Positions 2,197 to 36,528 of a DNA stretch of 36,528 nucleotides are shown here, piece by piece. The stretch lies in the sequence record SRR33789315_102; one strand, given 5' to 3'. The translations under genes were made by a program, and so were the position numbers. The notes below the pieces were generated by a model. The model did no database searches, was not told where the DNA came from, and worked only from the letters and a program-made list of their open reading frames with translations. The stretch's first letter is position 1. Each line of letters opens with the position of its first letter.

Positions 2197-2822
2197 TTTT
2201 TTTCTTTCTTTAGAAACAACGTTTCTTTTATGCTTTTTAATCTGGTAAATGCTTTGCCATTTACTTTTTCTTGAGGCTCTTTAACCACCTTTTTTTCTTC
2301 TTTTGCAGGATCATATAACATTCCTGTACACAAGCACATTTTTTGTTCTGTACGCTGTAAAACGTCATAATTCCTACAGGTTTGACAACCTTTCCAGAAA
2401 CTAGGATCATCTGTAAGTTCTGAGAACGTGACCGGCTTATAACCTAAATCAGAATTAATTTTCATTACCGCAAGACCTGTAGTAATCCCGAATATTTTAG
2501 CATCAGGATATTTATCTCGTGAATGTTTAAAAATGGCTTCTTTTATGCTTCTAGCCAGTCCTCTTCCTCTAAAATCAGGATGAACAATAAGACCCGAGTT
2601 GGCAACATATTTACCATGTCCCCAAGCTTCTATATAGCAAAAGCCAGCAAACTTACCATCTTCTATAGCGATGATGGCGTTACCGTTTTCCATTTTAGTG
2701 ATAACATACTCCGGAGTACGACGAGCGATACCCGTACCGCGTACTTTGGCAGATTCTTCTATAGTATCACAAATAATTTGCGCAAATCCCGAATGAGATT
2801 TATTTGCAATTACAATATCCAT
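2193..2822 (-). CDS. GNAT N-acetyltransferase, probable ArgA-like N-acetylglutamate synthase of Bacteroidota
   Basis: Acetyl-CoA motif VHPDFRGRGLA and FWKGCQTC...CLC cysteine motif. First gene of the arg cluster, ATGA overlap with argG. Confidence 0.8.
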   Translation of the reverse strand: MDIVIANKSHSGFAQIICDTIEESAKVRGTGIARRTPEYVITKMENGNAIIAIEDGKFAGFCYIEAWGHGKYVANSGLIVHPDFRGRGLARSIKEAIFKHSRDKYPDAKIFGITTGLAVMKINSDLGYKPVTFSELTDDPSFWKGCQTCRNYDVLQRTEQKMCLCTGMLYDPAKEEKKVVKEPQEKVNGKAFTRLKSIKETLFLKKEKK

Positions 2823-2863
2823 TTATATGTAACTGAGATTAAAAAATAAGTATATGATTGCTG

Positions 2864-2891
2864 AAAAAGGAACCGGACTCACCTAGGCTCC
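2864..2891 (-). terminator. Intrinsic terminator of the arg attenuator
   Basis: Minus strand GGAGCC-TAGGTGAGTCC-GGTTCC-TTTTT, between the leader ORF stop and the GNAT start. Confidence 0.7.
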
Positions 2892-2909
2892 ATAAAGAAG
2901 TTGCACCCA

Positions 2910-3014
2910 CTAGGGGCGACGGAAACGGCGTGCGGGACGAGATAATTGCATAGTAGAACACCCAACTAAATTTATTGGATCAAATGTGCTTATATGTATC
3001 GTTACCGTTTTCAT
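2910..3014 (-). CDS. Arg-rich leader peptide MKTVTIHISTFDPINLVGCSTMQLSRPARRFRRP* (34 aa)
   Basis: Translated by hand. All 5 Arg lie in the last 9 codons (CGT/CGC). Followed by a terminator and then the arg biosynthesis genes. Confidence 0.8.
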   Translation of the reverse strand: MKTVTIHISTFDPINLVGCSTMQLSRPARRFRRP

Positions 3015-3024
3015 TATGAAGCAT

Positions 3025-3054
3025 TAAAATTACAACCTTCTCTAGAGTTGACAA
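3025..3054 (-). promoter_or_regulatory. Bacteroidota-type promoter for the arg leader
   Basis: TTG-N19-TAATTTTA on the minus strand; 1 mismatch to the TAnnTTTG -7 box. Confidence 0.55.
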
Positions 3055-3177
3055 TACTTTTTATCTAAAAATCGTATTTTAATTCTATTTTTTATTAATT
3101 ATTCAAAGAATTCTACTTTTTGACATTACACCTAAAGTTTATGCAGTAATTAGCTTTAAAAATCATTTTATTTTCAA

Positions 3178-3217
3178 TAAAAAAGCCCTTGCTCACTTTA
3201 GTGAACTTGGGCTTTTT
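3178..3217. terminator. Hairpin terminator downstream of gapN
   Basis: AAAAAGCCC...TCACT-TT-AGTGA...GGGCTTTTT, with A/T tails on both sides. Confidence 0.75.
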
Positions 3218-3239
3218 ATGTCAAATTCAAAATATTACA

Positions 3240-4838
3240 TTAAAGAATATAATCTGTACTGATAAAATTGGATTTTTTAGTATCTAATAATTCGTTTAAT
3301 ATAGCATTATTGTAGTCGTTATCTTTTGAAGCTACAAAGGTTCTAATCGAAAATGCACGTAATGCATCATGAACACTCAATGTACCCGTGGCTGAATCTT
3401 TACGACCTGTAAATGGGAAAACATCTGGTCCGCGCTGGCAAGAACTATTCAAGTTTACACGGCAAACTAAGTTTACTAAGGTATCTATTAAGGGTGCAAG
3501 TGTTTTTGTGTCCTTTCCAAAGAGACTTACTTGTTGCCCATAACTTGACTCTGCCATATCATCTAGCGGCTCATCTATGGTTTTAAAAGGAACAATAGGA
3601 ACTACTGGTCCAAATTGTTCTTCTTGATACACACGCATTTCTTTGGTTACCGGAAATAAAACGGCAGGGAAAATAAAGTTTTCTGAACGCTCTCCTCCTT
3701 TTTCATTGATTATTTCTGCACCTTTTTTGATAGCATCATCAATCAATTCTTGAATATATTCTGGTTTACCCGGTTCTGGCAAAGGCGTTAATTTTACACC
3801 CTCTTCCCAAGGAAGTCCAAATTTAAGTTCATCTACAGCCTCAGCATATTTTCTATTGAAACTTTCGGCTATGTTTTCATGAACATATAATACTTTTAAT
3901 GCAGTACACCTTTGACCGTTATAGGATAAGGTTCCTGCAATGCACTCCGATACGGCAAGATCAAGATCTGCATCAGCTAAAATGATGGCTGGGTTTTTTG
4001 CTTCTAAACCTAAAACCAAACGCAACCTATTTTGTTTAGGATGCAAATTTTGTAAAGCATTAGCCGAAGAGCTATTGCCAATAAGAGCCAAAACATCCAC
4101 TTTTCCCGTTTTCATAATAGGTGAAGCTACTACACGACCACGACCAAAAATAATGTTTACTACACCTGCCGGAAAGCTTTCTTGAAACGCTGCTAACAAA
4201 GGTGCAATAAGCAAAACTCCAAATTTGGCTGGTTTAAATATAGCAGTGTTTCCCATAATGATTGCAGGAATCAAAAGGGTAAATGTCTCATTAAGTGGGT
4301 AATTATAGGGGCCTAAACATAGTACAACTCCAAGTGGCCCACGTCTGATATGTGCGTGAATACCGCCTTCTTTATGGAACTTAGCACTATCACGATCCAT
4401 ATCTTTATAATCTTCAATGGTATCGTTTATATAATCTACTGTACGATCAAATTCTTTCTGTGAATCAGCATAGTTTTTACCAATTTCCCACATCAAAAGA
4501 TTTACAACCTGTTCTCTTTTTGTTTTCATCTTTTGGACAAAAACTTCCATACACTTTATACGATCTACCACTTTCTTAGTAGGCCATAATCCTTGACCAC
4601 GATCATACGCTTTATGAGCAGCATCTAAAGCTTCCAGTGCTTCTTTTTCTCCTAAATCTGGAACAGAACCTAAAAAGGTAGGTCCTACTTTATCGTCTTT
4701 TTTTGTTTGTATTGTAGAATAAACGTCGGCCACTTCTCCTTCCCAATATACCAACTTACCGTTTACTAAATAAGTCTTCTGATTTAAGGGTTTAACATGG
4801 AATTTTTTAGGAATTTCTGGAATAATTACCTCATTCAT
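3240..4838 (-). CDS. gapN: NADP-dependent non-phosphorylating glyceraldehyde-3-phosphate dehydrogenase (ALDH family)
   Basis: [17 protein letters not shown], catalytic GQRCTA and EEQFGPV motifs. Confidence 0.85.
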
Positions 4839-11921: not shown

Positions 11922-11950
11922 AAAAAAAAACCTTCCGCTATTGCGGAAGG
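11922..11950 (-). terminator. Intrinsic terminator of the ilv attenuator
   Basis: Perfect 8-bp stem CCTTCCGC-AATA-GCGGAAGG followed by 9 T on the minus strand. Confidence 0.9.
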
Positions 11951-11985
11951 CCTTTTATATATTTACAGCAACTCTACCCGCATTA

Positions 11986-12045
11986 TTAATTTAATTTGCC
12001 AATGCGAATGACACCAAGTAGGTTTATTGCTTCTGTTTTTATCAT
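11986..12045 (-). CDS. ilv leader peptide MIKTEAINLLGVIRIGKLN* (19 aa)
   Basis: Translated by hand; 8 of 19 residues are I/L/V. Overlaps segment 1 of alternative hairpins and lies upstream of the terminator and ilvD. Confidence 0.75.
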   Translation of the reverse strand: MIKTEAINLLGVIRIGKLN

Positions 12046-12049
12046 ACAT

Positions 12050-12080
12050 CAAATGTACTTCAAATATTAAATTCAAGCAA
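12050..12080 (-). promoter_or_regulatory. Bacteroidota-type promoter for the ilv leader
   Basis: Exact -7 box TACATTTG (12057-12050) with TTG 20 nt upstream. Confidence 0.7.
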
Positions 12081-12097
12081 TTACTTAATCGATAATT

Positions 12098-12745
12098 TTA
12101 AGAATCAATCAACTTGTTTTTAAATGCATACAATACCAAGCCTATTCTGTTTTTAACTTCTAGTTTTTTAAATAGATTATCCCGGTAGTTATCTATTGTC
12201 TTTGGACTTAGACACATCACATCTGCAATTTCTTTATAGGTCTTCTCAGAACACGCCAGTTCTAAAAACTCTAGCTCTCTCGAAGAAAAGTTATCTACTA
12301 TTCTTTCTACATTTCTGTTATTAACACTGTCTAATAATGCCTGGGTTACCTGATCTGAATAGTAATGACCTTTTTTAACAAGCTCTTTTAATGCCTGCTC
12401 TAACATATCTGGGTGAATGTCTTTAAGCAAATAGCCTCTGCTGCCTAATCGCAACATTTTGATTATCGTTTCTTCATCATCATCCATAGAGAGGGCTAAC
12501 ACTTTAATATCTGGCTTTTCCTTAACAAGCCACTCCATCGTCTCAAAACCATTGCGTACCGGCATATTAATATCTAAAAGAAGTATATCCGGATTTACAT
12601 TAAAATTATCTAGTTTATTAATAAGGTCTACTCCATTTTTTGCAATAAAAACCACATTGAAGTTATCAAAACTACTTATCAATCTTTGCAAAGACTCTGC
12701 AAAAAGCACGTGATCATCAACAATACCTACTTTATAAACACTCAT
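12098..12745 (-). CDS. NarL/LuxR-family response regulator
   Basis: REC domain (VDDH, LLDINMP, GYLLK) plus LuxR HTH (SSRELEFLEL...YKEIADVMCLSPKTIDNYR). Confidence 0.93.
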   Translation of the reverse strand: MSVYKVGIVDDHVLFAESLQRLISSFDNFNVVFIAKNGVDLINKLDNFNVNPDILLLDINMPVRNGFETMEWLVKEKPDIKVLALSMDDDEETIIKMLRLGSRGYLLKDIHPDMLEQALKELVKKGHYYSDQVTQALLDSVNNRNVERIVDNFSSRELEFLELACSEKTYKEIADVMCLSPKTIDNYRDNLFKKLEVKNRIGLVLYAFKNKLIDS

Positions 12746-25100: not shown

Positions 25101-25580
25101 ATGAAAAAACTATGTTTTGCTTTGCTCACAATTGTTTTACTTTCTTGTGATGGCAATGCTCAAAAAAAGAATAATCAAAGTTTCGCTATTTCTAAAACAG
25201 ATACAGAATGGAAAGCCATACTTCCTTCCGAAGCTTATTATGTATTAAGAGAACAAGGCACAGAACGTCCTTTTTCTAGTCCGTTATTAAATCTCAAAGA
25301 AAAAGGCACTTATGTATGTGCCGCTTGCCAAAATCCACTATTTAAAAGTGAATACAAATTTAAAAGCGGTACGGGTTGGCCTTCTTTTGATCGCGAGATA
25401 AAAGGCAATGTAGCTTATGAAAAGGGTAATAAACTAAATTATGGTTCTGAAGAACACTGCGCAAATTGCGGTGGGCATTTGGGACATGTATTTAATGATG
25501 GACCAAAAGAAACTACTGGACTGCGTCATTGTATTAATGGAGACGCACTTAATTTTATCCCTGAAGATCAAGAAAAATAA
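25101..25580 (+). CDS. msrB: Peptide-methionine (R)-S-oxide reductase, lipoprotein form
   Basis: Lipobox LLSC, GTERPF, CAAC, GWPSF, CANCGGHLGHVF and RHCING motifs. Confidence 0.93.
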   Translation: MKKLCFALLTIVLLSCDGNAQKKNNQSFAISKTDTEWKAILPSEAYYVLREQGTERPFSSPLLNLKEKGTYVCAACQNPLFKSEYKFKSGTGWPSFDREIKGNVAYEKGNKLNYGSEEHCANCGGHLGHVFNDGPKETTGLRHCINGDALNFIPEDQEK

Positions 25581-25582
25581 TT

Positions 25583-25975
25583 ATGGAAAAATATCCTGTT
25601 GAAAAAACCGAAGTCGAGTGGAAAGAACTTCTCGATCCTGAGAATTATTATGTACTACGCCAAAAAGGCACAGAACGTCCGCATACCGGAAAATACAATT
25701 TACATTTTGAAGACGGAACCTATACTTGTGGTGCCTGCCACGTTCCCTTATTTGAAAGCAACAGCAAATTTGATGCTCATTGCGGATGGCCCAGTTTTGA
25801 TGAAGCACTAGAAGGAGCTATTGAATATGTTCCAGATACTACTTTAGGCATGAAAAGAACAGAAATTTTATGCGCAAACTGCGGAAGTCACTTAGGTCAC
25901 GTTTTTGATGATGGCCCAACAGCAACTGGTCAACGCTATTGCGTAAATTCGTTAAGTATCGATTTTGAAAAATAA
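25583..25975 (+). CDS. msrB: Peptide-methionine (R)-S-oxide reductase, cytoplasmic form
   Basis: GTERPH, CGAC, CGWPSF, CANCGSHLGHVF and RYCVNS motifs; no signal peptide. Confidence 0.95.
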   Translation: MEKYPVEKTEVEWKELLDPENYYVLRQKGTERPHTGKYNLHFEDGTYTCGACHVPLFESNSKFDAHCGWPSFDEALEGAIEYVPDTTLGMKRTEILCANCGSHLGHVFDDGPTATGQRYCVNSLSIDFEK

Positions 25976-28355: not shown

Positions 28356-29252
28356 CTATTTCAAAAAATCCTCCTCTTGGTAAGCTGGATGAGGATATTT
28401 ATAAAATCCTTCACCGGTAGCAACGCCTAACTTTCCTTGGTCTATAAATTTTTCTTTTAATAATTGTATCACTTTTATTTTTAAAGGTTCTTGGGTTTTA
28501 TCTGCAGCCATCTTATTGATATTGTAGGCGGTTGTAATACCCACAACATCCAAAATACCAAAAGGACCAACAGGAGCACCTGTAGCTTTCATCCAGGTTT
28601 TATCAATGGTAGGAATATCTGCCACATCATTTGCCCAAAGTCCTAAACCTGCACTCAATAAGGGAACGAGCAAGGAGTTAAGAATATAACCTGGTTGTTC
28701 TTTATGCAGCGGTAAGGCCAACATGCCTATAGCTTTTGCAAATTTCACAACTTCATTAAAAACAGCTTCAGAAGTTCCCTGGTGTCCCATAATTTCGGCA
28801 GTGTTGTGTTTCCAAATTTCATTGGCAAAATGTAAGGCAACAAATTTCTCGGGACGTCCAGTAAAAGTAGCAAATTGACTGGGTAATAAGGTAGAAGAAT
28901 TCGTGGCAAAAATGGTTTTTTCTGGAGCAACTTTAGCTAGTTTCTCGTAGAACCCTATTTTAATCTTGGGATTTTCAGGAACCGCTTCAATAAGTAAATC
29001 TGCATCTTTAACTGCTTCTGCTAAATTAGAATTGTAGGATAGACGACTTTTAGTAGCATCTAATTGCTCTTGCGTTGCATTCAAATCTGCTTTAAATACT
29101 TTGCTCATCAACTTGAATTTTGACTTTGCTTTTTCTAAAACTTCATCATTAATGTCATAAACAGTTACGTTAAATCCGTGGAATGCAGATTGAAAAGCGA
29201 TTTGATAGCCCAATACGCCACTTCCTGCAATGGTTATATTTTTTAAGTTCAT
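28356..29252 (-). CDS. 3-hydroxyacyl-CoA dehydrogenase family protein
   Basis: GSGVLG, IEAVPE, ATNSST, LHFAN and GPFGILDVVG motifs. Confidence 0.9.
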   Translation of the reverse strand: MNLKNITIAGSGVLGYQIAFQSAFHGFNVTVYDINDEVLEKAKSKFKLMSKVFKADLNATQEQLDATKSRLSYNSNLAEAVKDADLLIEAVPENPKIKIGFYEKLAKVAPEKTIFATNSSTLLPSQFATFTGRPEKFVALHFANEIWKHNTAEIMGHQGTSEAVFNEVVKFAKAIGMLALPLHKEQPGYILNSLLVPLLSAGLGLWANDVADIPTIDKTWMKATGAPVGPFGILDVVGITTAYNINKMAADKTQEPLKIKVIQLLKEKFIDQGKLGVATGEGFYKYPHPAYQEEDFLK

Positions 29253-29297
29253 GGTTATGTTTTTATAATAAAATTATATTTTGAAAGAATTACTTCT

Positions 29298-29741
29298 TTA
29301 ATTTAAAGCAGATTCATATTTGGTTATATCTGCTCGTAGCCCATCTGGAATTTCTATTGATTTTCCTTGTGTTATATCAATTAATACTTGGACACTTTTT
29401 CCCTTAGCATGAATAATTTCGCTTCCGTCTTTTCCAGTACTCGTTATTACATATTCAATTTCAAAACTTTTAGAGCCTAAAGAAGAAGTTCGTAACTTAA
29501 TACAAGGTTTTACAGCTGTTAACTTTATTTCTTTATAATAGTCACATTCTATATGTGCAATAACAAACATGTTTTTTGTCCAATCCCATTGTTTACTAAC
29601 TGCTGGCATATATAGCCCGCGACCAATTTGAAAATATTCAAAATAATATACATTATTTACATGACCCAATGGGTCTAAATCATTCCAGCGAATAGCTAAT
29701 GGTAAAGCGTATTTAAAATTTTCAAGATTGAGATTTTGCAT
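29298..29741 (-). CDS. Acyl-CoA thioesterase (hot-dog fold, 4HBT/YbgC-like)
   Basis: RWNDLDPLGHVNNVYY motif. Confidence 0.9.
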   Translation of the reverse strand: MQNLNLENFKYALPLAIRWNDLDPLGHVNNVYYFEYFQIGRGLYMPAVSKQWDWTKNMFVIAHIECDYYKEIKLTAVKPCIKLRTSSLGSKSFEIEYVITSTGKDGSEIIHAKGKSVQVLIDITQGKSIEIPDGLRADITKYESALN

Positions 29742-29769
29742 ATTATTTTTTATGTGTGGAATTGCTACA

Positions 29770-30033
29770 TTAGACTGGACACCAAGTTGAGCGAATCTTT
29801 TTAAGGTTTAACTCTTTTGTTAAGTTTGATGATAAGGTATTGGGCATTCCAGTATCAAAGAGAAAGTTGTATTCTTTATCATTAATTGTGGCTTTTATTA
29901 TAGGAAGCCCGTAATCAAAATTAAATGGAATCTCTTTAAGATATTGGTTTAAAGTTATTTCGGGTACTTTTGTGGTTGAAGTATACCCAGATACTATAAA
30001 AATTAATGCTAAATAAGTAAATAGCTTATTCAT
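29770..30033 (-). pseudogene. Truncated retropepsin-like aspartyl protease
   Basis: IPF...IIKATINDKEYNFLFDTG as in 35550..36485, but stops after 87 aa. Expected lipobox position reads SGY. Confidence 0.75.
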
Positions 30034-30104
30034 ATGTTCTTTGTATTTGTTTAAATAATTTCAAATAGTCCTTTTCCTATTTTAGGCAATCATTAGTACT
30101 ATAT

Positions 30105-30734
30105 TTAATCAATTTCCATATGGTAAACGGCCTCAAGAAATTTTTTAGAAGCTTCTTTTTCTTTTTTATCTATTTTCAACTCTTTAAATACTCCAGCTAC
30201 TTTAATCATTTTCTCTGGCAGCTTTTGATCTCCTTTAGAATGAGCAATCAAAAAGTTTTTATCAGACTCTTGATCTCTTAATTCATAGACATCATATAAG
30301 TCAATTAATGGAAACATGGAAAATGTGGTTACATTTCCCGTAATAATAGGTATCATTATAAACCCTAAAAAATCAGTTTTAGATTCAATCAATTTTGGAA
30401 TTCCGGTTATGATGGCATTTGCACCTATTATTCCCTTAGCTTGAGCCTCAGATGGTAATAACTCGACTGGTTTGTACTTTAAATAAATCTTCTGTAGATT
30501 TTCTTCTAGTTTTGAGATAACAGCATTTCTATTTTCTTCATCTAATTTTGAAATAGACAACTCAAAAAATAAAATCATTTGTTGTTTATCATAAAATACA
30601 CCTCCCACTTTTCCTAATTCAGATTTAGAGATTATTCCGTCATCTGCTTTAGTCAAAATGTTATAAAATCTTCCTCCGTTATCTAGATTAGAAATGGCGT
30701 CAATACTAGTTTTGTAGGGTTCTATTTTTTTCAT
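30105..30734 (-). CDS. Hypothetical protein
   Basis: 209-aa ORF with one central hydrophobic stretch; no recognised motif. Confidence 0.7.
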   Translation of the reverse strand: MKKIEPYKTSIDAISNLDNGGRFYNILTKADDGIISKSELGKVGGVFYDKQQMILFFELSISKLDEENRNAVISKLEENLQKIYLKYKPVELLPSEAQAKGIIGANAIITGIPKLIESKTDFLGFIMIPIITGNVTTFSMFPLIDLYDVYELRDQESDKNFLIAHSKGDQKLPEKMIKVAGVFKELKIDKKEKEASKKFLEAVYHMEID

Positions 30735-30779
30735 CGGTTTTTGCTTGATCTTATTTTGGTTCTTATTATTTTGTTCTAG

Positions 30780-31613
30780 CTAGTTATTTTTGACGGTATG
30801 ATTTCTTTTCAAATTTTCACTTTTATAACCTTCAACAAATTGAAAAGGAATTGATTTTAAACCGTTATTGTTATTTACTGGAACCGAGCCATTAAAGTGT
30901 AAATGTTCAATATTTGTTTGTCCTGTTTTGCCTGACAGTGCTATAGGTTGCCCGCTTTCAACTTTGTTTCCAATTTTCACAAGACTACCATTTTGTACTA
31001 AATGAAGATATTGTGTAAATATTCCAGAATATGGATCATAAATTGTTATGTAATTTCCATAGGCTTTCCATTTATCTCCTTCACCTCCCAATTCATACCT
31101 ATCACTAACTCCAAAAACAAAACCATTTGTTGCCGAACAGATTGTATCCTTAATTTTAAGGTTGAAATCTATTGCATATCTAGAATAATCTGTATTATGA
31201 GTAGGTTTTGAGTTATTCCCTTGAATTATGCTATACTCTTTATTCTTGGCAAATGGAAGGTTCATTTTTAGCATTATAATGCTTTTTGAAGTATCTCCTA
31301 ATAGCGATGAAAACGAAATACTATAGTCCTCCTTTTTAACATCTGAGAATACTAATAACGTATCTGTTTTAGCTTTTAACAACACCGGATTGATCGTATT
31401 AAATCTGGTTTGCAATTCGATATTTGAAATTTTTATAAAAACTCGTAGCGTACTTTCTAAAGGATTCTTTAGTTCAATTTTTAATACATTATTTTCAAAA
31501 GTATGAGATGCTTGATAAGAATATTGTGAATATCTTTCGGCTGGTAGTTTAGTAGATTGACATCCTACAAGAAAAATGGAAATAAGAATTAATATATTGA
31601 TTGTTTTCAACAT
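30780..31613 (-). CDS. M23 family metallopeptidase lipoprotein
   Basis: Lipobox LVGC, H...YAIDF, YGNY, YLHL and HLHF motifs. Confidence 0.88.
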   Translation of the reverse strand: MLKTINILILISIFLVGCQSTKLPAERYSQYSYQASHTFENNVLKIELKNPLESTLRVFIKISNIELQTRFNTINPVLLKAKTDTLLVFSDVKKEDYSISFSSLLGDTSKSIIMLKMNLPFAKNKEYSIIQGNNSKPTHNTDYSRYAIDFNLKIKDTICSATNGFVFGVSDRYELGGEGDKWKAYGNYITIYDPYSGIFTQYLHLVQNGSLVKIGNKVESGQPIALSGKTGQTNIEHLHFNGSVPVNNNNGLKSIPFQFVEGYKSENLKRNHTVKNN

Positions 31614-31621
31614 TCTGGTCT

Positions 31622-31822
31622 AATGGGCTACAATACTCCTTTACAAATAGTTAATAATCAACTTGTTTATAGGTATTGGTCTTAGGAAAACTTCGTGATT
31701 TTAGCATCTAATATAACAAATAAAAACCAAAAAATACCTATAAACCGATCAGAAGAAATTCGTGAGTTTATAGAGTCTTGGCTTATAAGTTGACTCAAAC
31801 TAGGAATAAATAATCTACGCAG
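31622..31822 (-). repeat. Degenerate inter-gene spacer element, copy C
   Basis: Core TTTGGTTTTTATTTGTTATATTAG; ends TTGTAGCCCATT just before the M23 start. Confidence 0.5.
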
Positions 31823-32740
31823 TTATTTTATTTCAATTATTCGCTCTTCAATATTAGTTGTTTCTTCTGCACTTATTTCCTTAGTCTCAATACTATATAA
31901 TACCCAACCACTTTCTCCATGAATTCTTGACGCTGTATTTGTCTCATTTGTCAATGAAGGAAACTCATTTCTTGGTGGTAATAGGTCTCCAAATGTGCCC
32001 GATTTTTCTAAATAACGGTAAGTTTCATCAGTCAATTGCTCTGAATTTATAACTTGAGTTGATCTTAATATTGAATTTCCCTCAATATCATTTATTTCGT
32101 CTAGACCAAAACGGACATCTGTTTCAAAAGATTGCCCTCCATAATTGTTTACCGTTTCTAATTTTCCCTCTAACTCCTCACCTAGTTTATATTTTACTCC
32201 ATGAAATTGATAAAATTGCATAACATCTTTAATTGCATTTGCCTCAATAGATTCCTTTGTTGAATAAGCACTCATAGTAGTAGCAATTATTTTTTCAACA
32301 TTAGGAATATCCTTAAACTCATCCTTAAGAACGGCTGTAACTTTTGTTAGATAATCTTTAACTTCTTCCCAATTTACAACTTCTATAAATACACCATATT
32401 CATCTGTTTTTATTTTAACAGCAATATCATTCGCAATTGAGGTTAGTTTTCTAACCAATTCATTTTTTGTGTCTATGGAGTAATTTTTATAAAACCATTC
32501 AATAGTATAGCTATTTTCTGTTGAGTCGATTATCTTAATATCAACCTCATATTTAACTAATTCTCTTGAAATAGTGTCGTTGCTTTTTATCTTATATTTT
32601 TCGTAGGAAACATCATATGATTGAGTTTCTTGTTGTGACCAATATCCAATTACTTGAACGGTTGAATCTTTTACACTTATTTGTCCAAAAAAGGTTGATG
32701 AAATAAGGAATATTGTTCCAAATATGAATAGTTTATTCAA
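31823..32740 (-). CDS. Secreted hypothetical protein; start likely TTG 32740
   Basis: Signal-like NKLFIFGTIFLISSTFFGQ. The upstream ATG at 32764 lies in the spacer end CCGTTATGTGCA. Confidence 0.75.
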   Translation of the reverse strand: MNKLFIFGTIFLISSTFFGQISVKDSTVQVIGYWSQQETQSYDVSYEKYKIKSNDTISRELVKYEVDIKIIDSTENSYTIEWFYKNYSIDTKNELVRKLTSIANDIAVKIKTDEYGVFIEVVNWEEVKDYLTKVTAVLKDEFKDIPNVEKIIATTMSAYSTKESIEANAIKDVMQFYQFHGVKYKLGEELEGKLETVNNYGGQSFETDVRFGLDEINDIEGNSILRSTQVINSEQLTDETYRYLEKSGTFGDLLPPRNEFPSLTNETNTASRIHGESGWVLYSIETKEISAEETTNIEERIIEIK

Positions 32741-33087
32741 ATTGATTTTTGTTTTTGTGCACATAACGGTATTAAGTATGTAAAGATGTGGTTTTACTAC
32801 TTAAATAGAAGATTTAATCTTTTATTCTTTTCTTTATTCCTTTGTTATCGCTATATATTTTAGATAATCCATTCAAAGTATAAATTATTCCAAGTACTGT
32901 AAGACCATACTTTAAAGGAATATATTTTCTAATCTACTTGTGCCAGAGATAAAATAGTAGTAGTCATTTATTGGGTTTTGTTACAATTACATACATATCA
33001 TATTAATAGTTTACGTTTCCTAACATTCTAAGTTATGTTTATTTTTTTCAAAATGGGTTATTATTTATACGGCGATATAATTAGTTA

Positions 33088-33543
33088 TTATTCTTTTGTG
33101 TACTCGTAATTATCTCCGTCACAAGTTCCACCTAAGGTATTTTGCAATTTGTTATCAGTAGTAAGGATTAGTAATTGCTTATTTGTTTCCATAATACCAC
33201 AGTTAAAAAATATAGCATCAGAAGAAGAATAGGATAGTTCTAAAAACTTTTGAATACTGCCATCTTCATTACCATAAGTTTGAATTTTCATCTGTAATTA
33301 TAAAATTTCCATTAAGAGTAGCAACTGTATTATTTTCTATTGATATCCGTTCAAAAGTGCCATTTTCATTATCTTATACTAATGAGTTTCACTTGGATTA
33401 GGAGACATTGTATCACCAACCGAAGTATTTATTATTTTGGTCAAATTCCATTTTCCAAATACTGAGTTTTCTTTAATTTCATCATCATTATTACAACTAA
33501 ACAGCAATAAAAATAAGAGTGAAATTGTTGCTATTTTTTTAAT
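33088..33543 (-). pseudogene. Disrupted lipoprotein gene (lipocalin-like GKW motif)
   Basis: (ATT)KKIATISLLFLLLFSCNNDDEIKENSVFGKWNL..., then an in-frame TAG and two frameshifts leading into the 33088..33291 ORF. Confidence 0.75.
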
Positions 33544-33609
33544 TACTTAGAAATTAATTGTTTGCAATCTATAGATGCATTTGCTTTAAAAAGGTTGATT
33601 GAAATAGAT

Positions 33610-33758
33610 TAGTGTTTGTCTAAGATTGGTGGCATTGTTTCAATTTAGCTAATAAAAACCGAAACTTCCACTGGCAGGTAGGTAGAATCTCAAAGTTATC
33701 TGGATTCTGAAAAAGGACAGAAAGAAGCAATGGCATATAGTACATGTTGTTAACTGGC
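33610..33758 (-). repeat. Degenerate inter-gene spacer element, copy B
   Basis: Begins GCCAGTTAACAACATGTA directly after a TAA; core TTCGGTTTTTATTAGCTAAATTG. Confidence 0.55.
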
Positions 33759-33913
33759 TTATTTCTTTTCTTTCCCCCAATTTTTCAATTCTATATTAAG
33801 TTGTTCATTCACCTTTGGGCAAGAATGAAGTCCCAACTACACTTTTCTATTTTCTTTATATGCTTTAAGAAAATTCTGGCAAAATCACCTATAGTTATTA
33901 AAACCTCATTTTT

Positions 33914-35215
33914 TTAATCGGTTTTATTGACATAAATTTTTCCATCTTTCATTATAAATGCAACGTTTTCTATTGTAGAGATAAAATCATTAATTACATC
34001 TCCTTTTACAGCTATGATGTCCGCATTTGCTTGAGGATGTATATAGCCTATTTCACTCTCTTTATTTAATTGGGCTGCCGAAATATATGTGCTAGACTGT
34101 AGTATATTTAATGGCTTCATTCCTGCTTCAAAATAATATCTAAACATATCTATTGATGATTTTCCTCGGGATACCTTTATATCGGTATAATTATCAGAGC
34201 CAGCTACGATAGTGACTCCTTTAGCAATTGCCCTTTTTAACCTATCTTTCATTCTCTTAAGATAACTATCAACCCAATCTAACTCATTATCTTTATAACC
34301 AGCGAGTTTAGCATAGGTATTCATGTAAAATTTACTATTTTCTGTGGGCACTAAATAAATTTGCTTTTCAGCCATTTTAATTAAAGTACTATCTGCTAGA
34401 TTAAAACCATGTTCAATTCCATCAACACCAGCTTCAATTGCATTCCAGGCGGACTGGTTTGTAACACAATGAGCTGTTACCTTCAAATTGTATGAGCGTG
34501 CTGTTTTAACAATAGATTTTATTTCATCTAGTGTTAAATAAGTTTTATTTGGAATATTATCAGCGCAAATTTTAATTAAGTCTACATTTTGATTGATATG
34601 TTCACGGACAGCATTTTTTGCATCTTCTGGACTTGTTATGATTCGATATTCTAAATCTATTATATTCTGATGTTCAGGAAGTACACCATAAACTTGCCCA
34701 CCATTTGCGGCTAAAATAGGACCAGAAGCAAAAATACGTGGACCTTCAATCGTTCCTTCGTTAATAGCATCTCGAAGGGCTACGTCAAGGTATAAACCAG
34801 AGTTTCCAAGATCCTTGATACTTGTTATTCCTTGGTCTAAATAACTTTTGGCTCTTTTAGCACCCCGAAGCACTCTCAATGCATCACTTTCCATTGTTAA
34901 AGATTGAATACTGTGTTCTGCAAAATCTTCGTTGGCATCTTGGGAAAAAAATATATGTGTGTGAGCATCTATGAATCCAGGAAGAATAGTATACTCGGTT
35001 AAATCTATAAATTTATTATTTTTAGGAAGAGATTTAAATTCATCAATAGAGATGATTTTTGTTCCTTGTATTTGTATAAGCTTGTTTTTAAGTAGCTTAT
35101 TATTTTTGCTATCGTATAAATAACCAGCTTTGATATATGTGCTCTCTTGTTGTCCTAGTAATTGCGATGGTGAATAAATAGCAAGTATCATTAAAAAAAT
35201 AAGTGTTTTGTACAT
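33914..35215 (-). CDS. Secreted metal-dependent amidohydrolase (Xaa-Pro dipeptidase-like); start likely ATG 35215
   Basis: LPGFIDAHTH, DLIK, VTAH, IEHG, AGSD and ADIIAV motifs; signal peptide. Confidence 0.9.
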   Translation of the reverse strand: MYKTLIFLMILAIYSPSQLLGQQESTYIKAGYLYDSKNNKLLKNKLIQIQGTKIISIDEFKSLPKNNKFIDLTEYTILPGFIDAHTHIFFSQDANEDFAEHSIQSLTMESDALRVLRGAKRAKSYLDQGITSIKDLGNSGLYLDVALRDAINEGTIEGPRIFASGPILAANGGQVYGVLPEHQNIIDLEYRIITSPEDAKNAVREHINQNVDLIKICADNIPNKTYLTLDEIKSIVKTARSYNLKVTAHCVTNQSAWNAIEAGVDGIEHGFNLADSTLIKMAEKQIYLVPTENSKFYMNTYAKLAGYKDNELDWVDSYLKRMKDRLKRAIAKGVTIVAGSDNYTDIKVSRGKSSIDMFRYYFEAGMKPLNILQSSTYISAAQLNKESEIGYIHPQANADIIAVKGDVINDFISTIENVAFIMKDGKIYVNKTD

Positions 35216-35285
35216 GCCTATATTTTTTATTTGGTACAGAAATAAGTTAATCATGTATGGTCACTATTTTGTTTTTGAGCTGACT

Positions 35286-35396
35286 TCAATATAGGATTTT
35301 ACTGGCTCTTATTTTTGTGTGCTCGTGAATCGTCTTTTTAGAATCAACGCAACTCGATAACACTAAAATTATTAATATAACAATAATTCTTTTCAT
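35286..35396 (-). pseudogene. 36-aa lipoprotein N-terminal fragment (or very small lipoprotein)
   Basis: MKRIIVILIILVLSSCVDSKKTIHEHTKIRASKILY*; clear lipobox LSSC; translated by hand. Confidence 0.6.
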
Positions 35397-35549
35397 GCTT
35401 TCCGCTTGTTGCAATTTACTAGCACAATGTGTCAGTGCGTTATTTACGACAAAGGTAGCAAAAAGAAACTAGCCGCAGAATCTCGAAGGTTTAAGGTTCG
35501 TAAATAAGCTTGCACTAGCAATTAATTTTATAGGTTGTGCGTAGGCTTT
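35397..35549 (-). repeat. Inter-gene spacer element, copy A
   Basis: Begins AAAGCCTACGCACAACC directly after the protease stop. Core CTAGTTTCTTTTTGCTACCTTTG contains an exact TAnnTTTG box. Confidence 0.55.
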
Positions 35550-36485
35550 TTATTTCAAGTTAGTGTTTTCTATCAACTTTATTTTTTTACTATCCCAATT
35601 TAGAATAACACGATAATTTCTAAAAAAATCTGAACCAAACCTCTTACTCAAATATTGCTCTGAATATACTTTTTCGTTTTTTAGAGTAGAGTTTCCGAAT
35701 TCGATATCATTAATTGTTCCTTTATAAGATTCTCTTGTTACATCTTGACTTCCATAAATTCCAACAGTAGCATGAGTTGTCGATTTTGTGAAATCTGAAA
35801 TTTGACTATCTTCTATTTGCTTTTCAAATTCGGTAAATGGAATGACTATGCCTCCATTATAGCCAAAATCTACAGTAAAATTCCAAACTTTTTTTTCATT
35901 TATTTTACAAGCAATAGCAGGTACTCCTGCAACACCAATAAATAACTTATTCTCAATTATTTCTTCGGGTAAGTTTAATTTTGATTCGTTATCAGTTATG
36001 GTAATTTGTTTTTTGCCAAAATCAATATCCCAAATAGCGTGTTGCATTAAATTTGAACCTATAAATCCATCAATATTTAAAGAAGACCACATTGGTATAG
36101 AATTAAAGTCATTTATTAAGGCTACTGTATCAACAAAATCTAATGTTCCAATTTTAATTGTTTCTATTCTTGTATATTCATTAGATAGTTTTTTATTAAA
36201 AACATCAGAAGCTTTTATTGAATCAATAACTTTCAAATTTAAAGCTGCTGCAAGTTTTTTTGATACAAGACTGGGTGTTCCTGTGTCTAAAATAAAATTA
36301 TAATCCTTATTTTTTATTTTTGCTTGTACAATTATATATCCATTTTTTATCTCGAAAGGTAAAGTTACTTTAAAGTTTTCTTCAGCAGTTTTTCCTTCTT
36401 TAAGATACGTTACAGCCTTATTAACTGAACAGCTATTTATTAAAATAAATATTATCAAATAAATAAATGTTTTGGCTATTTTCAT
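35550..36485 (-). CDS. Retropepsin-like aspartyl protease lipoprotein, two-domain
   Basis: Lipobox INSC, FILDTG, DGFIG and second-lobe VDFG motifs. Confidence 0.85.
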   Translation of the reverse strand: MKIAKTFIYLIIFILINSCSVNKAVTYLKEGKTAEENFKVTLPFEIKNGYIIVQAKIKNKDYNFILDTGTPSLVSKKLAAALNLKVIDSIKASDVFNKKLSNEYTRIETIKIGTLDFVDTVALINDFNSIPMWSSLNIDGFIGSNLMQHAIWDIDFGKKQITITDNESKLNLPEEIIENKLFIGVAGVPAIACKINEKKVWNFTVDFGYNGGIVIPFTEFEKQIEDSQISDFTKSTTHATVGIYGSQDVTRESYKGTINDIEFGNSTLKNEKVYSEQYLSKRFGSDFFRNYRVILNWDSKKIKLIENTNLK

Positions 36486-36505
36486 TTTTTTGAATTTTAA
36501 TAAAT

Positions 36506-36528
36506 AATCCTCGAGGCAGAGCCGTCGA
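36506..36528. repeat. GC-rich REP-like palindrome truncated by the window end
   Basis: CCTCGAGGCAGAGCCGTCGA; TCGA-GGC arms pair with GCC-(G)-TCGA. Confidence 0.5.

Follow-up and report, generated by a model that had tools for sequence, protein, structure and literature searches.

Integrons are the textbook gene-capture device and are thought to be nearly absent from Bacteroidota. The DNA considered here is a stretch of 36,528 nucleotides from sequence record SRR33789315_102 (referred to as the window), which contains copies of an attC-like element. From position 29770 to at least its end at 36528, the minus strand of the window very likely carries the decayed remains of a cassette array, one of a recombinase-associated kind that is common in Flavobacteriaceae. 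The element is conserved, intergenic, and ~147 nt long, and intact copies of it end the cassettes of related arrays in other genomes.

IntegronFinder surveys of Bacteroidetes list only In0 elements and one Salinibacter integron (10.1101/2022.02.28.482270), with no cassette arrays in Flavobacteriaceae, and two Flavobacteriaceae genome papers record no integrons by the same program. The literature covered, which is incomplete and may miss a prior description, holds no paper in which integron-like arrays or attC sites are connected with Flavobacteriaceae. Of the systems described so far, the one closest to these arrays in layout is rAID-1 of Bacteroidales (Ross et al., 10.1101/471110), in which a 5′ XerD-family tyrosine recombinase is followed by co-directional low-GC genes and repetitive intergenic sequences, called “reminiscent of integrons” by the authors. 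Membership in rAID-1 is defined by at least 44% identity to the Bacteroides fragilis recombinase, and the content consists of orphan immunity genes.

Sedentary chromosomal integrons of the Vibrio type, with their near-identical attC repeats, share much with the Flavobacteriaceae arrays. Both have a tyrosine recombinase beside co-oriented, mostly single-gene cassettes, and an imperfect hairpin site with AAC and GTT boxes closes each cassette. Both have inverted repeats at the cassette ends across GTT, a preference for bottom-strand folding, a distinct site beside the recombinase gene, and many cassettes of unknown or defence-type function. An initial annotation of the window, made from its letters alone, had read the region as an eroded Bacteroidota cassette-capture system analogous to integrons. 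That reading is supported, and the observations behind it are partly confirmed: the core spacers are real homologues, while some of the proposed spacer starts and ends are without support.

Element, recombinase, and cassettes of related arrays

Intact copies of the element have an attC-like architecture, with near-invariant AAC and GTT boxes, two stems, and an unpaired spacer; in the window, the stems are broken. When up to 3 mismatches to the 24-nt core are allowed, 41 sites are found in the 3.6-Mb Lacinutrix genome G001, and none with the reversed control. The majority are on a single strand of contig 7, between 70 and 145 kb, or on small contigs that have the repeat at their beginning or end. 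In two alignments of element copies (A1, 43 copies; A2, 44 copies), the near-invariant AAC falls shortly past the upstream stop codon and GTT shortly before the next start codon, and sequence conservation ends directly after GTT. The R boxes fit the integron consensus RYYYAAC/GTTRRRY at AAC and GTT only, and the element differs further from integron sites in being long and highly conserved in sequence across genera. A reading of the core as the −7 box of Bacteroidetes promoters was dropped, the core being part of the 147-nt conserved element. No Rfam family is found in the intact arrays.

The small central tip hairpin shows compensatory changes in 5 of its 7 pairs. With the structure as specified, 88.8% of stem cells pair, and the observed covariation score is reached by none of 500 shuffles. 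Folded as single-stranded DNA (ssDNA), the element forms R-box pairing, an unpaired spacer, and then a 16-bp stem between the region after AAC and the region before GTT. Over 20 stem pairs in 44 copies, 664 cells are Watson–Crick, 144 are A/C, 25 are G/T, 45 are other combinations, and 2 are gapped; one pair covaries through three states (TA 12, CG 12, AT 8). The A/C cells become G·T wobbles on the bottom strand, which therefore folds better (z of −2.1, −3.6, and −3.4, against −1.3, −2.0, and −2.6 on the top strand). The 16-bp stem supersedes a candidate inner stem (helix 3) that would join the core to the AT-rich 5′ part and that is 83% paired and shows no covariation.

The IntI family model gives sub-threshold matches to tyrosine recombinases of 305–408 aa in five genomes. 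In two Gaetbulibacter loci (L087 and L088), the recombinase gene is followed immediately, and in the same direction, by arrays of 13 and 9 elements. Among the sequencing runs searched by their contigs, none carries the intact L087 array, the best share being 0.12. These recombinases reach 203–227 bits on the XerA/integron-integrase model (cut-off 220) and 179–212 bits on the IntI model TIGR02249 (cut-off 265), so that, in contrast to integron integrases, they stay below the IntI cut-off and fit the XerA model as well or better. The TIGR02249 match falls into two stretches and skips model positions 181–242, where the IntI-specific insertion presumably lies. Among solved structures, XerA is closest to these recombinases, followed by an XerC-like protein and IntI4.

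At E≤1e-70, this recombinase family is present in 48 of 151 Flavobacteriaceae genomes. Among the 30 best recombinase loci, taken with 1.5-kb flanks, the element occurs in 16, always downstream and co-oriented; 4 of the remaining 14 end at a contig edge just past the gene. The usual co-orientation of recombinase and array (16/16) is a further difference from integrons. A second recombinase subtype of 375–408 aa, with a different N-terminal region, is encoded at L085 18654–19781, the end of G001 contig 7 (~220 nt from the contig end), and at L064 1138–2364. Relatives of this subtype, 37–42% identical, are found in the genomes G013 and G124 with elements downstream on the same contig and strand.

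A possible attI-like site was surveyed in 15 arrays, namely 13 of the 16 element-bearing loci together with L087 and L088; L089, L111, and L117, in which the first element is partial or at the locus edge, were left out. The predicted 5′ boundary of the first cassette, GTT followed by the complement of the 7-nt box of the first element, is located between the recombinase stop codon and the first element in all 15 arrays (9 exact, 6 with one mismatch). Ahead of this boundary come first a perfect palindrome, which varies in sequence from genome to genome, and then a short conserved spacer. The distance from the recombinase stop codon, measured in two loci, is 27–65 nt. By analogy of position, the palindrome and the GTT boundary may be regarded as an attI-like site, although a perfect palindrome sets it apart from its integron counterpart.

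The 73 units between successive elements measure 418–2457 bp, and one open reading frame (ORF) covers a median of 0.97 of the unit. The cassette ends were examined by comparing the 7 nt after the GTT of one element with the 7 nt before the AAC of the next. Among 86 neighbor pairs, 32 are perfect reverse complements and 51 agree at 6 or more of 7 positions; within single elements, the corresponding figures are 0 and 3 of 102, and in random pairs, 0.5% and 2.4%. Copies 1 and 3 of the window, which are not true neighbors, make up one of these 86 pairs. Each gene, rather than each repeat, is thus flanked by a 10-bp inverted repeat (GTT+7/7+AAC), which is the footprint expected of a gene and its element moving as a unit by recombination at GTT, in the manner of integron cassettes. 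Since perfect matches are absent between the ends of single elements and occur between the ends flanking genes, the pattern is the opposite of the trace of a self-contained mobile repeat.

About half of 59 cassette ORFs have no Pfam family. The others include a DpnII/MboI-type nuclease, a GmrSD-HNH protein, an AbiEii-like ATPase, a RelA/SpoT domain, and MutS domain V, as well as six DUF6090 proteins, S41 peptidases, a thioesterase, and a glyoxalase. DUF6090 recurs as a cassette (L088, L019, and L070; 6 of the 59 ORFs, plus one in L005). Three successive cassettes of L088 carry identical end boxes, which suggests tandem duplication within arrays.

A covariance model of the element, R1, with 147 positions and 17 pairs, was built from copies in other genomes without the window sequence. 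At a threshold of E≤1e-6, R1 matches are present in 116 of 151 Flavobacteriaceae genomes, sampled evenly, whereas a phylum-wide sample of 151 genomes has them in 17; with 20 candidates scored per genome, element counts per genome are lower bounds. An array of ~75 kb extends over ~70–146 kb of G001 contig 7 (L005, L069–L071, and L059), with an LptD-like gene at its upstream end and an RHS-repeat fragment among its first cassettes. Many small G001 contigs (L060, L072–L084) start or end inside the repeat, which probably breaks short-read assemblies.

The repeat family, its structure and strand bias, the end repeats, and the linkage to a recombinase and an attI-like site are matters of direct observation, and a mechanism can be proposed on their basis. 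In working arrays, the unit is one ORF followed by the ~147-nt element, with the AAC box just past the stop codon. The element forms a long imperfect hairpin, best on the bottom strand, and ends with the GTT box just before the next gene. Cleavage at this box is most likely the work of the XerA/IntI-like tyrosine recombinase, whose gene lies directly upstream. The folded bottom strand of one element would be paired with the attI-like site or with another element, and strand exchange at GTT would insert or excise circular units of gene and element, as integron integrases do with attC and attI. Because the recombinase is co-oriented, the cassettes may be read from upstream transcription.

Degenerate copies and probable cassette genes in the window

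R1 was run on both strands of the entire window with filters off and matches listed to E 10. Of the 12 matches, three stand apart at E≤2.5e-4, the next best having an E of 0.44. All three span the full model length, lie on the gene strand, and occupy spacers of the flagged region, and copies 1 and 3 begin on the stop codons of their upstream ORFs (Table 1). Copy 1 keeps its AAC box, while its 3′ stem half is deleted and its GTT box is altered; as ssDNA, it forms a hairpin on neither strand (z of +0.43 and +0.09). Copy 2 also keeps its AAC box, a 43-nt insertion replaces the central tip hairpin, and the GTT box is deleted. In copy 3, a 50-nt insertion replaces the central hairpin, and both stem halves are shortened. 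Degenerate copies had been anticipated by the initial annotation, and the scores of 32–43 bits and the damaged boxes and stems agree with that description.

The same annotation had pointed to three minus-strand cores, which can be read at 35472–35450, 33663–33641, and 31731–31708 and are homologous, all aligning to the same positions of R1. Two of the spacer starts that it proposed (35546–35534 and 33758 onward) coincide with the AAC-box end of the element, and the third (33086) has no support from the model. As to spacer ends, 32769–32758 resembles a GTT box by eye only, and 31633–31622 is without model support. The spacer from 32758 to 33087 closes with ~25 nt that, compared by eye with alignment A2, look like the 3′ stem half of the element, its spacer, and its GTT box.

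Mutual similarity of the spacers, also claimed at the outset, holds through the model and mostly fails in direct comparison. When the spacers S1–S4 are compared pairwise (6 pairs, 200 dinucleotide shuffles each), five pairs are near the shuffle expectation and only S2–S4 stands out, with a best 23-mer of 19/23 that is equalled by 1 of 200 shuffles; S1 is not significantly similar to any other spacer by this measure. A repeat finder ranks the S2–S4 pair 17th of 42 families and gives many equally good short matches in coding DNA. Since direct comparison is near chance, the finding would have failed on that test alone; the spacer signal is clear only with a profile from other genomes. By blastn, the cores of S2 and S4 match intergenic DNA of other genera (88–96% over 22–34 nt), and for the 5′ part of S1 there is a match of 91% over 32 nt in a Xanthomarina locus.

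Table 1. Array remnant in the window, listed from its upstream end
Feature	Coordinates	Strand	Evidence and remarks
Retropepsin-like aspartyl protease, 311 aa, cassette gene	35550..36485	−	PF13650, E 1.6e-12; lipoprotein-type N-terminus
Element copy 1	35412..35552	−	R1, 42.7 bits, E 1.9e-6; starts on protease stop codon
42-aa ORF	35286..35414	−	ORF list; lipoprotein signal; no Pfam family
Amidohydrolase, 446 aa, cassette gene common to several genera	33914..35254	−	PF01979, E 3.4e-35
152-nt stretch from amidohydrolase stop to element copy 2	33762..33913	−	Sequence reading; TAA at end
Element copy 2	33602..33761	−	R1, 32.5 bits, E 2.5e-4
Probable broken lipoprotein gene	33088..33530	−	ORF reading only; pieces 33379–33507 and 33088–33291
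Spacer	32758..33087	−	No R1 match up to E 10
313-aa protein, cassette gene	31823..32764	−	Signal-like N-terminus; no Pfam/NCBIfam family
Element copy 3	31664..31827	−	R1, 35.3 bits, E 6.6e-5; overlaps stop codon of 313-aa ORF
M23 peptidase lipoprotein gene	30780..31613	−	PF01551, E 8.4e-13
209-aa ORF	30105..30734	−	No Pfam/NCBIfam family
Truncated aspartyl protease gene (AspFrag), 87 aa	29770..30033	−	Downstream edge of array remnant

Genes of the window occur as cassettes in unrelated contexts elsewhere. The amidohydrolase is found in 23 genomes of many genera at 73–84% amino-acid and 72–83% nucleotide identity; nucleotide homology ends at the ORF borders (33912–35232), and no neighbors are shared with any of the 23 loci. 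The core protein GlgB of the window, by comparison, is at most 73% identical (amino acids) to that of any of 401 family genomes. The conservation of the amidohydrolase relative to GlgB is consistent with a single gene having spread horizontally in recent times. In 6 of the 23 loci, an element is found no more than 300 nt away from the amidohydrolase, and L005 and L019 have one on each side of it. Homologues of the protease (68–79% identity) are found in 13 metagenome loci, 3 of which have an adjoining element (on both sides in L120, and in L127 and L128). In these loci, the homologous genes thus adjoin such elements among unrelated neighbors, in keeping with the initial annotation. A distant homologue of the 313-aa ORF (26% over 234 aa) is located beside the amidohydrolase in L009, with an element between the two. 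The amidohydrolase copies (loci L001–L023) include some in records titled Phaeodactylibacter and Putridiphycobacter.

Several of the remaining features may be debris of cassettes. The 42-aa ORF is possibly a remnant of another cassette; in L005, 21 nt separate the element from the amidohydrolase start, without this ORF between them. In L003, L006, and L019, the element begins ~20 nt past the amidohydrolase stop codon, versus 152 nt in the window, which suggests deletion or fusion of cassettes in this stretch. It shows patchy similarity to an equally long stretch after the Gaetbulibacter amidohydrolase (L023 11300–11480). The gene fragments noted initially hold up to different degrees: AspFrag is 46% identical over 48 aa to residues 42–89 of the 311-aa protease and matches PF13650 partially (profile positions 1–38 of 90), as a truncated paralogue would, and the broken lipoprotein gene at ~33530–33088 is read from ORFs only, belongs to no family, and has no homologue by tblastx among the loci collected from other genomes. 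The ORFs of the region are indeed co-oriented and functionally unrelated by the ORF list and family searches; their secreted or lipoprotein character rests on N-termini read by eye.

The gene complement of the window is that of an ordinary Flavobacteriaceae chromosome, with arginine and branched-chain amino-acid genes, a two-component system, pxpABC-type genes, GH31, glgB, msrB, and lpd; neither tRNAs nor Rfam families were found in it. The G+C content is 0.28–0.31 in 6 of the 7 1-kb bins from 29001 to 36000 and 0.30–0.40 in the rest of the window. A thioesterase gene at 29298–29741 was rejected as a cassette, being unrelated to the G001 thioesterase cassette and lacking an adjoining element. 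The array-flanking 3-hydroxyacyl-CoA dehydrogenase (28356–29252) has a patchy distribution: it occurs in 14 of 401 family genomes at E≤1e-80 with at most 78% identity and in 3 of 10 genomes of the genus of G132, with neighbors shared in none of 6 loci. Two neighboring MsrB (SelR) genes, the first with an N-terminal extension, are encoded on the plus strand at 25101–25975.

Probable decay and alternative explanations

The window array is read as eroded because stem halves, a GTT box, and tip hairpins are lost, the end repeats have disappeared, and its genes include a truncated one and others that look broken; it is probably no longer recombinable. As no end repeat survives, the cassette status of the window rests on homology to elements and genes elsewhere.

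A number of observations weigh against a decayed cassette array. The recombinational footprint is deduced from the end repeats, for which 52 of the 86 neighbor pairs come from one genome, G001. In the window, whose sequence ends at 36528 inside the array, no recombinase was found by family searches of the proteins, as the initial annotation had remarked, and the largest array examined, that of G001 contig 7, has none at its upstream end. In a Zunongwangia metagenome-assembled genome (L086), the recombinase is divergent from a 5-element array; a DNA cytosine-5 methyltransferase-like ORF, recognized from an N-terminal motif by eye, adjoins that recombinase (2748–3728). From 29770 to the window end, every ORF is on the minus strand, yet this co-orientation is not special, since all 21 ORFs of at least 120 aa between 35 and 24620 are likewise on the minus strand. 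The R1 scan finds no element between the M23 gene, the 209-aa ORF, and the truncated protease. E-values of R1 are rough, the model having an effective sequence number of 2.65 and being built mostly from one Lacinutrix genome. The window copies reach only the low scores given above, compared with 100–171 bits for intact copies elsewhere, and a low score alone is no proof of decay, as an L087 element of 35 bits (11934–12145) keeps perfect end repeats. Finally, cassette-end inverted repeats of the kind that recombination at G/TT leaves, which are found in related arrays, are absent from the noncoding DNA of the window at up to 1 mismatch.

The low scores could also mean that the window array is not decayed at all and belongs to a divergent working subtype, scored low by a Lacinutrix-heavy model. 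The small effective sequence number of R1 would favor this explanation, as would the 35-bit element with perfect end repeats, the amidohydrolase-linked elements of L003, L006, and L019 with only 38–43 bits, and the distance of the organism from all sampled genomes by GlgB. However, the copies are no more alike among themselves than they are like the model, and each of the three is without a different essential part (3′ stem half, GTT box, or tip hairpin). The failure of copy 1 to fold on either strand, the missing cassette-end repeats, and the truncated and other likely broken genes between the copies point the same way, and a live divergent array is considered improbable.

The element could alternatively be real without being a recombination site, serving as a regulatory or terminator RNA or as a small mobile repeat (REP/MITE-like) between ordinary genes. 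The tip hairpin with a T-rich run is terminator-like, with 4 of the 13 L087 elements flagged as such, and elements occur at many places in the genome, some arrays lacking an adjacent recombinase. Nevertheless, terminator-like sites are not enriched (6 versus 4.3 ± 2.0 in shuffles), the stem pairs better on the non-transcribed strand, and no Rfam family is matched. The perfect end repeats flank genes (32/86) and never single elements (0/102), and the element is tightly linked to a recombinase and an attI-like site. A non-recombinational repeat is accordingly given little credence.

Chance resemblance of AT-rich intergenic DNA in an ordinary variable chromosome region, which near-chance spacer similarity in 5 of 6 pairs, the many short matches in coding DNA, and the generally poor conservation of gene order in Flavobacteriaceae might suggest, is hardly credible given three full-length, co-oriented, intergenic R1 matches anchored at stop codons, nothing comparable in the other 30 kb or on the other strand, and spacer parts that match other genera.

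Relation to described systems and significance

The decayed-array interpretation places the window beside three kinds of described systems. Like CALIN, the clusters of attC sites lacking an integrase that are distinguished by IntegronFinder, the window and the 75-kb array of G001 contig 7 have arrayed elements without an adjacent recombinase; in contrast, CALIN are defined by a canonical attC covariance model. Compared by layout and content, rAID-1 differs in host (Bacteroidales versus Flavobacteriaceae) and in content, with orphan immunity genes in place of diverse cassettes that comprise enzymes, peptidases, restriction-type proteins, and many of unknown function. In the Pfam search of the 59 cassette ORFs, which did not include immunity-specific profiles, no recognized immunity family was found. 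Two or more co-directional low-G+C genes with intergenic repeats, another defining trait of rAID-1, are present in the related arrays; the window has the genes and repeats, with no recombinase seen.

Taken further, the comparison leads to a broader proposal, toward which we lean with limited confidence: an undescribed, family-wide integron-like system of Flavobacteriaceae that standard detection has missed. Its parts would be an XerA/IntI-like recombinase without what we take to be the IntI-specific insertion, a palindromic attI-like site, and arrays of up to tens of kilobases of single-gene cassettes ending in 147-nt bottom-strand hairpins. Cassettes like the one with the window's amidohydrolase would be exchanged between genera, and the window would hold a fossil array.

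For the window itself, the outcome is an annotation: it holds an inactive array in which three recombination sites are degenerate, one gene is truncated, and further gene remnants are likely. The weight of the finding lies less in these relics than in what they point to. If the proposal is true, it would help to account for assemblies of these genomes that are broken into many small contigs ending in the repeat. The recombinase would lack a domain thought to define integron integrases. The system would also be relevant to how attC-type single-strand recombination evolved and whether it did so more than once. Abundant marine degraders of algal polysaccharides would have their own widespread cassette system and, with it, a large reservoir of mobile genes, some unknown and some defence-type in function, that could be searched with a simple model.

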